The position numbers and the translations under genes were made by a program. This document shows, piece by piece, positions 1,187 through 1,313 of a stretch of 4,837 nt of DNA. How positions within the stretch are numbered: position 1 is the first letter of the stretch; each line of letters starts with the position of its first letter. The notes below the pieces were generated by a model. The model made no database searches. It worked only from the letters and a program-made list of their open reading frames with translations, and was not told the DNA's origin. Source of the DNA: Escherichia phage CBA6; sequence record KM389299.1. One strand, 5' to 3'.

Positions 1187-1214
1187 TTATCAATAACGGG
1201 TTACAAAGTATAGT
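1187..1214 (+). promoter_or_regulatory. Candidate sigma70-like promoter (-35 TTATCA 1187-1192, 16-bp spacer, -10 TATAGT 1209-1214)
   Basis: Hexamer matches of 4/6 and 5/6 with canonical spacing in an A+T-rich stretch immediately upstream of the 1234-1298 hairpin. Weak evidence by itself. Confidence 0.2.
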
Positions 1215-1233
1215 TAACTCACTGAACGGCAAG

Positions 1234-1313
1234 CTGTTTGAGTCCTGGCCACTCATAGCGATGTGAGACCAAGACAGGTAGGTTTAGGACTCAAACAGGT
1301 TTTCGTTTTCGTT
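1234..1313 (+). terminator. Long hairpin (15 bp, 1234-1248 with 1284-1298, two G-U wobbles) followed by U-rich tract GTTTTCGTTTTCGTT; terminator-like or 3' end of a roughly 90-nt sRNA
   Basis: Perfect 13-bp core CTGTTTGAGTCCT / AGGACTCAAACAG extended by two G-U pairs. U-rich run at 1299-1313. The loop is about 35 nt, larger than in typical intrinsic terminators. Confidence 0.3.

Follow-up and report, generated by a model that had tools for sequence, protein, structure and literature searches.

Phage-borne genes for transfer-messenger RNA (tmRNA, or SsrA) have been collected in the tmRNA database papers, which list complete genes from Bacillus phage G and from mycobacteriophages, together with the tmRNA-like gene of mycobacteriophage DS6A (PMC4131195, PMC11915505). 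Here we describe a locus of Escherichia phage CBA6 that resembles the message half of such RNAs. The stretch analyzed, referred to as the window, is 4,837 nucleotides (nt) long (sequence record KM389299.1) and is the tRNA region of a Kuttervirus (Ackermannviridae, Vi01/CBA120 group); 324 phage records match it by nucleotide comparison, and positions 1040–1340 show 100% identity to Escherichia phage ECML-4 and several Salmonella phages. A sequence-only reading had picked out 1187–1313 as promoter-like hexamers followed by a long hairpin and a U-rich tract, and proposed either a self-contained small RNA of about 90 nt or a terminator closing an upstream transcript. We consider it probable that a structured phage RNA of ~265 nt (~1221–1484) has its promoter and 5′ leader at 1187–1313, and that the core of this RNA is a tmRNA-like message module with no tRNA-like domain. 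A 2 kb region free of open reading frames (ORFs) in Vi01/CBA120-like phages was noted as unusual in 2011, with no genes identified (PMC3184105). We found no credible ORF at 650–2800 of the window, and at least part of the 2 kb region appears to be a gene.

The message module and its family

Conservation is unbroken past 1313, and the ~170 nt from 1314 to 1484 are as conserved as the hairpin upstream. Sequence and covariation together show a putative layout of promoter, leader, 5′ box, arm, tag reading frame, stop-loop hairpin and pseudoknots, with all elements on the + strand. The conserved arm (1312–1358) contains GUGAC at 1318–1322 (GCGAC in the family), UUUGCGG, AGAAACUGACCAC and the pre-resume context AAAAUAAUC, in which U at −5 and A at −4 are placed as in the AAUAGUC|GCA of E. 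coli tmRNA. The resume codon GCU follows at 1359 and, with its tmRNA-like upstream context, reads AAAUAAUC|GCU. From here a tag reading frame (1359–1394; GCU AAU GAU AAC ACG UUC CUG GCA GUA GCU UAA UAG) specifies ANDNTFLAVA in 10 codons, followed by two stop codons; the E. coli SsrA tag is ANDENYALAA. The window and Vi01 differ at three positions in the frame, all of them synonymous, and the tags of other genera are ANDDVVLMAA, ANDNAYLAVA or ANDSEVLMAA.

The structure around and 3′ of the frame was evaluated in an alignment of 17 distinct Ackermannviridae sequences from Kuttervirus, Agtrevirus and Taipeivirus, and across the family in 21 diverse members. A hairpin resembling tmRNA helix 5 (1377–1405; outer stem 1377–1380/1402–1405, inner stem 1386–1388/1393–1395) carries the stop codon UAA in its loop; it is 100% paired, with a G-C to A-U swap in 7/17 and 10/21 sequences. 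It is followed directly by pseudoknot PK2 (1406–1438), formed by stem 1 (1406–1410/1421–1425) and stem 2 (1415–1418/1435–1438), in which 3/5 and 3/4 pairs have changed on both sides across the family, and 3/5 and 2/4 within the Ackermannviridae. Pseudoknot PK3 (1439–1482) has a conserved crossing loop, AUUAAUAA. Its stem 1 (1439–1443/1461–1465) is 100% paired across the family with both-sided changes at 2/5 pairs, and its stem 2 (1452–1459/1475–1482) shows such changes at 6/8 pairs in the 17 Ackermannviridae sequences.

Over the whole structure (1184–1489), 98% of alignment cells are paired in the 17 sequences, compared to only 33–45% in slid controls, and both-sided changes occur at 16 pairs against 5.0 ± 1.3 in shuffles, none of which (0/500) reaches the observed number. 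For the hairpin and pseudoknot stems, pairing among the 21 family members is 97.4%, and both-sided changes affect nine pairs. The predicted RNA from 1221 to 1486 folds at −87.3 kcal/mol (z = −4.1). Within the 5′ arm, we detected neither covariation-supported internal pairing nor a PK1-like structure among 46 distinct arms. Rfam tmRNA models align at the tag region with E = 0.03–0.06, and ARAGORN reports no tmRNA for the window or any of 43 related loci. The RNA is evidently related to the message half of tmRNA, and the family would have been derived from tmRNA or would mimic it.

Homologues of the core (tag, hairpin and pseudoknots) are found at ~76–78% identity in several types of replicon. 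There are 641 phage records that carry it, including HK620, Felix O1-like phages, Mooglevirus, SSU5, Ackermannviridae and phages of ~45–48 kb such as Sf11 and ZX4, and in these records the matched stretch bears no annotation or only "hypothetical protein". The HK620 copy is 100% identical to a prophage copy. In E. coli lambdoid prophages the core is flanked by the Q antiterminator and holin genes and is preceded by a promoter and terminator similar to lambda pR′ and tR′. It is also present in SSU5-like and pMT1-like phage-plasmids of Klebsiella, Enterobacter, Cronobacter, Salmonella and Yersinia pestis, and the RNA usually lies in or beside phage tRNA clusters. We note that the Y. pestis pMT1 copy (locus L028, 2423–2640; tag ANEDTYLAVA) has its own promoter and occupies an unannotated gap just 5′ of caf1R in the F1 capsule locus.

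A search of IMG/VR recovered at least 120 contigs matching a degenerate core pattern, yielding 121 distinct cores with 18 tag variants of the form AN[DE]xxxL[AMI][VA]A. All tags have exactly 10 codons, even though the pattern permitted 9–13, and tag codons 1, 2, 3 and 10 differ at the third position only. A scan of genome contigs gave mostly unrelated matches, such as in Methylobacterium, plus a few in Enterobacterales. We found no description of this RNA in a full-text literature search, the coverage of which left out most subscription journals.

Promoter, leader hairpin and 5′ box

The predicted sigma-70-type promoter (1187–1214) consists of a −35 hexamer TTATCA (1187–1192), a 16-nt spacer and a −10 hexamer TATAGT (1209–1214), with 9/12 consensus positions matched in a consensus scan; transcription is predicted to start near A1221. 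The hexamers show no or almost no variation across Kuttervirus, Agtrevirus, Taipeivirus and Limestonevirus, in contrast to the spacer, which differs, and in the 17 aligned sequences the block TCAATAA...AGTATAGTTAAC.CACTGAA is unvarying and the middle of the spacer is variable. The −35 hexamer is TTGTCA in most other genera, and in 11 of the 19 Ackermannviridae cores with a called promoter. This pattern of conservation supports the promoter reading, as does the presence of a sigma-70-type promoter at the equivalent place in 56 of 121 other family members; more generally, the promoter, hairpin and U-rich run are judged to be above chance because they are conserved in relatives. The consensus scan revealed no promoter-like site between 1300 and 1358, and no shared early-promoter motif elsewhere in the phage was found in ~80 kb of Ackermannviridae flanks. 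Dickeya phage LIMEstone1 retains only the promoter and the first ~25 transcribed nt of this module; unrelated sequence with no significant fold (z = −0.9) replaces the box, tag frame and pseudoknots there (locus L002, 2514–2860).

The transcribed sequence begins with a leader A-tract (1224–1232), which reads GAACGGCAA here and GAACGAAAA in most relatives and forms a lower stem with the U-rich box. Above it is the leader hairpin (1234–1298), with an upper stem of 13 Watson-Crick pairs (1234–1246 with 1286–1298) followed by two G-U pairs, and a tip that branches into small hairpins at 1252–1267 and 1268–1279. Its + strand has a minimum free energy of −41.8 kcal/mol (z = −4.4; 0/200 shuffles as stable) and its − strand is weaker (−30.8 kcal/mol, z = −2.5). 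An independent repeat search returned arms at 1225–1246 and 1286–1307 (22 nt, 86% complementary, 39-nt loop), and the stem therefore reaches into the upstream A-tract and the U-rich run. Arms of this length and complementarity make up an imperfect helix of ~20 bp or more, as looked for in RNase III processing sites. In the 17 sequences the 22-pair helix is 95.7% paired, with both-sided changes at three pairs; the compensatory changes include U-A to C-G and C-G to A-U, and four positions alternate with G-U, which fits a + strand RNA only. The Ag3 leader folds with nine lower-stem pairs. Taken together, these data support a real + strand RNA structure.

The hairpin is specific to its lineage in sequence and has recombined freely with tags of different types, and a leader hairpin is not present in SSU5-like, T1-sized or warpig-type family members. 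As a separate observation, SSU5-like elements have a long hairpin ~340 nt past the tag (Klebsiella SSU5-like plasmid L027, 2910–3000; Y. pestis pMT1 L028, 2665–2745). The stem of the L027 hairpin starts with AGCTGTTTGGG, the same 11 nt as the consensus of the Ackermannviridae leader hairpin; this match could be due to chance or to a shared movable hairpin module.

The U-rich run GTTTTCGTTTTCGTT (1299–1313) is interrupted, reading G-UUUU-CG-UUUU-CG-UU with U at 10 of 15 bases, and is made of two copies of a 5′ box, GUUUUCG (1299–1305 and 1305–1311), that is unvarying across the family. All 121 distinct cores have GUUUUCG, roughly 40–55 nt 5′ of the resume codon. In 56 of these cores a sigma-70-type promoter (TTTACT-17-TAAGAT, TTGACA-17-TAGATT, TTGACA-17-TATAGT and similar) has a −10 ending 6–12 nt before the box with no hairpin, so that the RNA would begin at the box. 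A further 19 cores, which are all of the Ackermannviridae ones with a called promoter, have the promoter 83–84 nt 5′ of the box and the hairpin in between; no promoter was called in 35, and in many of these a long helix closing a variable domain abuts the box. Since the RNA of relatives would begin at the box and has no hairpin, the hairpin is a leader insertion, specific to its lineage, between start site and box. The three elements that the sequence-only reading had listed are all where it placed them, the repeated UUUUCG included, and its promoter and hairpin have gained comparative support; what it took for the tail of a hairpin is probably the 5′ box of a larger RNA, conserved, as far as the comparison of sequences goes, for reasons unconnected with a terminator tail.

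A pair of closely related Felix O1-like phages illustrates this arrangement. E. coli phage warpig has TATAGT-AACCTTA-GTTTTCG, and Salmonella virus VSe11 has the same promoter followed by a ~95-nt insertion with a 17-bp hairpin, whose upstream AAAAU pairs with the GUUUU of the box. This order of elements, from promoter through A-tract and long hairpin to box, has therefore arisen at least twice, from unrelated sequences. We also observed that in lambdoid members (L026, L034, L042, L050 and others) the tag core is flanked on either side by variable domains that are closed by helices GGTAAGAGCATT...AGTGCTCTTTCC; a T-arm is present in some of the domains, and some end in ...TTTCCA right before the box, like a tRNA-like 3′ end. 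With the exception of one chance case, the box has no complement in the interval from 230 nt before the resume codon to 300 nt after it.

Possible processing, termination and action on the host

A simple explanation would be as follows. Transcription from the promoter would yield an RNA in which the first ~80 nt fold as the long hairpin, with the A-tract and the GUUUUCG box as its lower stem; there would follow the arm, in which no internal structure was detected, the tmRNA-like pre-resume context, the 10-codon tag frame, the stop codon in its hairpin loop and the two pseudoknots. In other lineages the same RNA would start at the box, either straight from a promoter or after a helix-closed domain in a late transcript. 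The leader hairpin may sequester the box until the leader is removed. RNase III, for instance, might cleave the ~22-bp helix, and the mature RNA would then begin at the box, as proposed for relatives that have no hairpin. Alternatively, the leader may serve as a partial terminator that limits read-through, and removal and attenuation could both hold. RNase P cleavage at a tRNA-like unit (1515–1584) may set the 3′ end. The retention of the resume context, of a fixed-length tag with codon-like variation and of a helix-5-like stop loop suggests that the host trans-translation machinery either reads the mature RNA or is acted on by it.

Several points weigh against this interpretation. The Rfam scores are far under the gathering thresholds (20.6 vs 47 bits for RF04321, 14.6 vs 84 for RF01850 and 10.5 vs 47 for RF00023), and the conserved core is without a tRNA-like domain by which the tag frame could be read. 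Because the search pattern fixed GCAAACGA and GCNTAA, it biases some of the conservation seen at codon level. The promoter hexamers alone are not above chance, with eight promoter-like sites in the window compared to 7.2 ± 2.7 in shuffles; a C-U mismatch in 6/17 sequences, among them the window's lineage, leaves the lower stem imperfect there; and the unit at 1515–1584 is absent in some genera. We infer the start site, 3′ end and processing of the RNA, and even its expression. Finally, an A-tract, hairpin and U-run in this order have the shape of an intrinsic terminator too, and efficient termination would preclude production of the downstream module from this promoter.

The best of the alternatives is a possible though not a likely one, in which the hairpin and U-run are an intrinsic terminator or leader attenuator and most transcripts stop at ~1305–1313 as a ~90-nt leader RNA. 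The tag module would then be made only on read-through or regulated antitermination, a possible course of events that is compatible with our preferred explanation. The stem is strong, the upstream A-tract is complementary to the U-run as in bidirectional terminators, and 10 of the 15 bases 3′ of the stem are U; moreover, VSe11 gained its A-tract, hairpin and box leader independently, and the RNA of lambdoid prophages lies behind tR′, so that it requires Q antitermination there too. However, the loop is 39 nt long and branched rather than the short 3–10 nt expected of an intrinsic terminator, the base of the stem is A/U-rich, and the first base past the stem is G, with just four U before C-G. 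A consensus terminator scan made no call, albeit with a loop limit of 8 nt. Termination also does not explain the conservation of GUUUUCG, which is kept in 56/121 members with no preceding hairpin. As for a terminator closing an upstream transcript, the other half of the earlier proposal, this is unlikely given that the conserved promoter sits between the upstream tRNA-like unit and the hairpin; nor does the hairpin stand at the end of a transcription unit, as covarying RNA runs to ~1484.

A second alternative concerns the action of the mature RNA, which might pair with host tmRNA as an antagonist or a tag-swap partner, its 5′ arm (box plus GCGAC) annealing to the resume region and the leader masking the arm until it is processed. 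We regard this as doubtful. For 24 of 31 distinct arms the best duplex on the 363-nt E. coli ssrA is at nt 86–107 (AGUC|GCAAACGACGAAAACUAC), from the resume codon through codon 6, and these duplexes have 15–19 pairs and energies of −16.6 to −22.9 kcal/mol, compared to only −5 to −14 kcal/mol for the same arms on the phage's own resume region; the lack of detectable structure within the arm also favors pairing. On the other hand, the complementarity was found post hoc, the duplex energies are only weakly better than those of shuffles (p = 0.003–0.2), and the arms are mutually non-independent. The Salmonella SsrA tag is ANDETYALAA (PMC12493166), which implies an internal mismatch opposite the box if the Salmonella codons otherwise match E. 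coli ssrA. The arm of the Salmonella phage VSe11 is identical from the box onward to that of the E. coli phage warpig, and it is therefore not adapted to Salmonella. Folding of the full-length RNA as a duplex with ssrA was uninformative.

A specific form of this idea, which seems to us less probable again, is that of a phage tag-swap device. The freed 5′ arm would anneal to host tmRNA between the resume codon and about codon 6, mask the host template, and set the phage resume codon and tag beside the host tRNA-like domain and SmpB. Were this so, rescued proteins would receive a phage tag ending in LAVA or LMAA, not the ClpXP degron LAA; the alternative to such a swap is that trans-translation is simply blocked.

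The first half of the earlier proposal, a self-contained ~90-nt small RNA (1221–1313) as the functional product with the conserved sequence downstream forming a separate gene, is in our view improbable. The promoter, hairpin and U-run that it calls for are all there, but conservation is continuous through 1313, and a conserved tag frame and two covarying pseudoknots continue from 1314 to 1484 with no promoter-like site at 1300–1358. The hairpin is also lineage-specific, freely recombined with different tag types and missing altogether from members in other phages, in which the box occurs hairpin-free. Lastly, a DNA-level palindrome (a protein-binding or recombination site) or a chance structure is very improbable indeed: the region is mosaic with module breakpoints near 1175–1181, but the four G-U positions of the helix would be C-A mismatches on the opposite strand, the + strand folds far better than the − strand, and pairing is kept by compensatory changes.

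The surrounding region and comparison with known systems

Comparison with nine relatives shows that the region is a mosaic of modules, with breakpoints that include ~1099–1112, 1148, 1175–1181, 1484, 1584 and 1843. Just 5′ of the promoter, and outside of the predicted RNA, is a degenerate tRNA-like unit (1107–1171, + strand) with a T-arm (GTGTGGTTCGATTCCACAC) and acceptor strands GGTGAGG and CCTCGTC and with no anticodon stem. It is annotated as tRNA-Ala in two records, and ARAGORN makes no call. This unit is missing from Klebsiella phage Magnus and Enterobacter phage EspM4VN, which have the same downstream RNA, and is swapped for a different one in Vi01 and Marshall, in which the RNA 3′ of it is unaltered. 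An ORF at 1102–1266 (54 amino acids) was rejected as coding; it spans the tRNA-like unit, the promoter and the hairpin, and relatives show 1-nt indels and compensatory RNA changes within it.

The small tRNA-like unit at 1515–1584 (+ strand), recognized by its fold, lies ~30 nt past PK3 and has a T-arm and an encoded CCA; it gives a weak Rfam match to tRNA-Sec (17.4 bits) and is missing from the Agtrevirus phages Ag3 and SKML-39. It is one of three non-canonical tRNA-like RNAs in the window with canonical T-loops and encoded CCA (1515–1584, 1586–1712 and 4617–4742). The first, of ~70 nt, has a GAAA-tetraloop hairpin where the anticodon arm would be, and the second, of 127 nt, is a four-way junction fold; a ~190-nt unit of the same kind is present in Dickeya phage LIMEstone1 (L002, 3286–3478). 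These RNAs might be RNase P punctuation or decoys. Five standard tRNAs, all on the + strand, were identified by ARAGORN at 3220–4831.

The ORF-free region contains three more hairpins (1711–1843, 1989–2124 and 2497–2590) with arms of 22–26 nt that are 88–95% complementary and loops of 42–92 nt. Their edges coincide with module breakpoints between phage genera, and possible roles are those of RNase III-type processing sites or of stems that close further structured RNAs. Two ORF-poor blocks (2573–2793 and 4134–4417) retain ~89% identity even in Dickeya Limestonevirus, exceeding that of neighboring protein-coding matches, and are candidates for additional conserved non-coding RNAs. An HNH homing endonuclease gene annotated in relatives (e.g. 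SeKF_64, 414 nt) is apparently interrupted in the window (2774–3229), being present as two ORFs (2774–3037 and 3128–3229) with a 3′ end that overlaps tRNA-Met (3220–3294); in some relatives (SP1, Se-G and 0507-KN2-1) the HNH gene is inserted instead within the 1040–1340 stretch.

The proposed RNA may be set beside several known systems. RNase III processing hairpins occur in phage early transcripts, such as R1.1 of T7, and the leader is similar in that it would place an imperfect ~22-bp helix exactly where the 5′ end of its relatives' RNA lies. The species 1 and 2 RNAs of T4 are stable RNAs inside a phage tRNA cluster, and there is a likeness in genomic setting only: a non-tRNA structured RNA among phage tRNA genes, probably freed by tRNA-processing enzymes. 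With intrinsic terminators that have an upstream A-tract, the leader shares an A-tract, stable stem and U-rich run in the same order. It differs from them in its 39-nt branched loop, its interrupted U-run starting with G, the conserved RNA running on downstream, and the keeping of the U-run in stem-less relatives.

Two-piece (permuted) tmRNAs (RF01849–51, RF04321) have, like this locus, a stem-closed domain directly 5′ of the tag region, and an Rfam permuted tmRNA model aligns its outer stem onto the leader hairpin. Unlike in those RNAs, the 39 nt enclosed by the leader have no T-arm, acceptor strand or CCA, and the upstream tRNA-like unit is self-contained and is variable or absent while the downstream RNA is constant. 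A two-piece molecule using the upstream T-arm (1145–1161) was rejected on this account, as that unit has its own 5′ strand, and it differs (CCTCGTC vs CCACCGC) or is missing in relatives with an unchanged downstream RNA. A one-piece tmRNA using T-arms further downstream (1560, 1688) was likewise rejected: Ag3 and SKML-39 do not have those modules, no T-loop was seen in the examined stretches of pMT1-type members, and none of them shows a G3-U70 pair. Capture of a host ssrA gene was also considered and rejected. By blastn at E ≤ 10, matches came from only 756 of 5,426 E. coli genomes, and the universal ssrA gene is therefore not detectably similar; the matches inspected are unannotated, and the one examined in detail lay in a prophage.

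The closest resemblance is to tmRNA itself (SsrA; RF00023). The phage core has an alanine resume codon after an A-rich context (U at −5, A at −4), a 10-residue AN[DE]...A tag close to ANDENYALAA, a stop codon in a hairpin loop comparable to helix 5, and H-type pseudoknots 3′ of the frame. It lacks an acceptor stem with G3-U70, a T-arm and a CCA end, and the RNA is not a tmRNA, because no tRNA-like domain could be assigned to it. It has two pseudoknots after the frame as opposed to three in tmRNA, with PK1 not demonstrable, spans just ~185 nt from box to PK3, falls far under the Rfam gathering thresholds with no ARAGORN call, and is encoded by phages and plasmids rather than at the host ssrA locus. 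The family is a widespread and unannotated RNA of enterobacterial phages, of E. coli prophages and of Y. pestis pMT1 beside the caf1 capsule locus, over which automated pipelines now put spurious small ORFs, and a covariance model for it would improve phage annotation.

Among phage-encoded RNAs, the DS6A tmRNA-like gene is the nearest parallel, as it too is a partial tmRNA and a precedent for a fragment that possibly interferes with host trans-translation, although it represents the opposite half, having the tRNA-like domain and no tag frame (PMC4131195, PMC11915505). Reported phage tmRNAs either are complete or have only the tRNA-like domain (PMC4131195, PMC11915505), in contrast to the tmRNA message module without a tRNA-like domain described here. 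If this RNA is read by trans-translation, or interferes with it, it would constitute a previously unrecognized phage route for manipulating ribosome rescue and proteolytic tagging.

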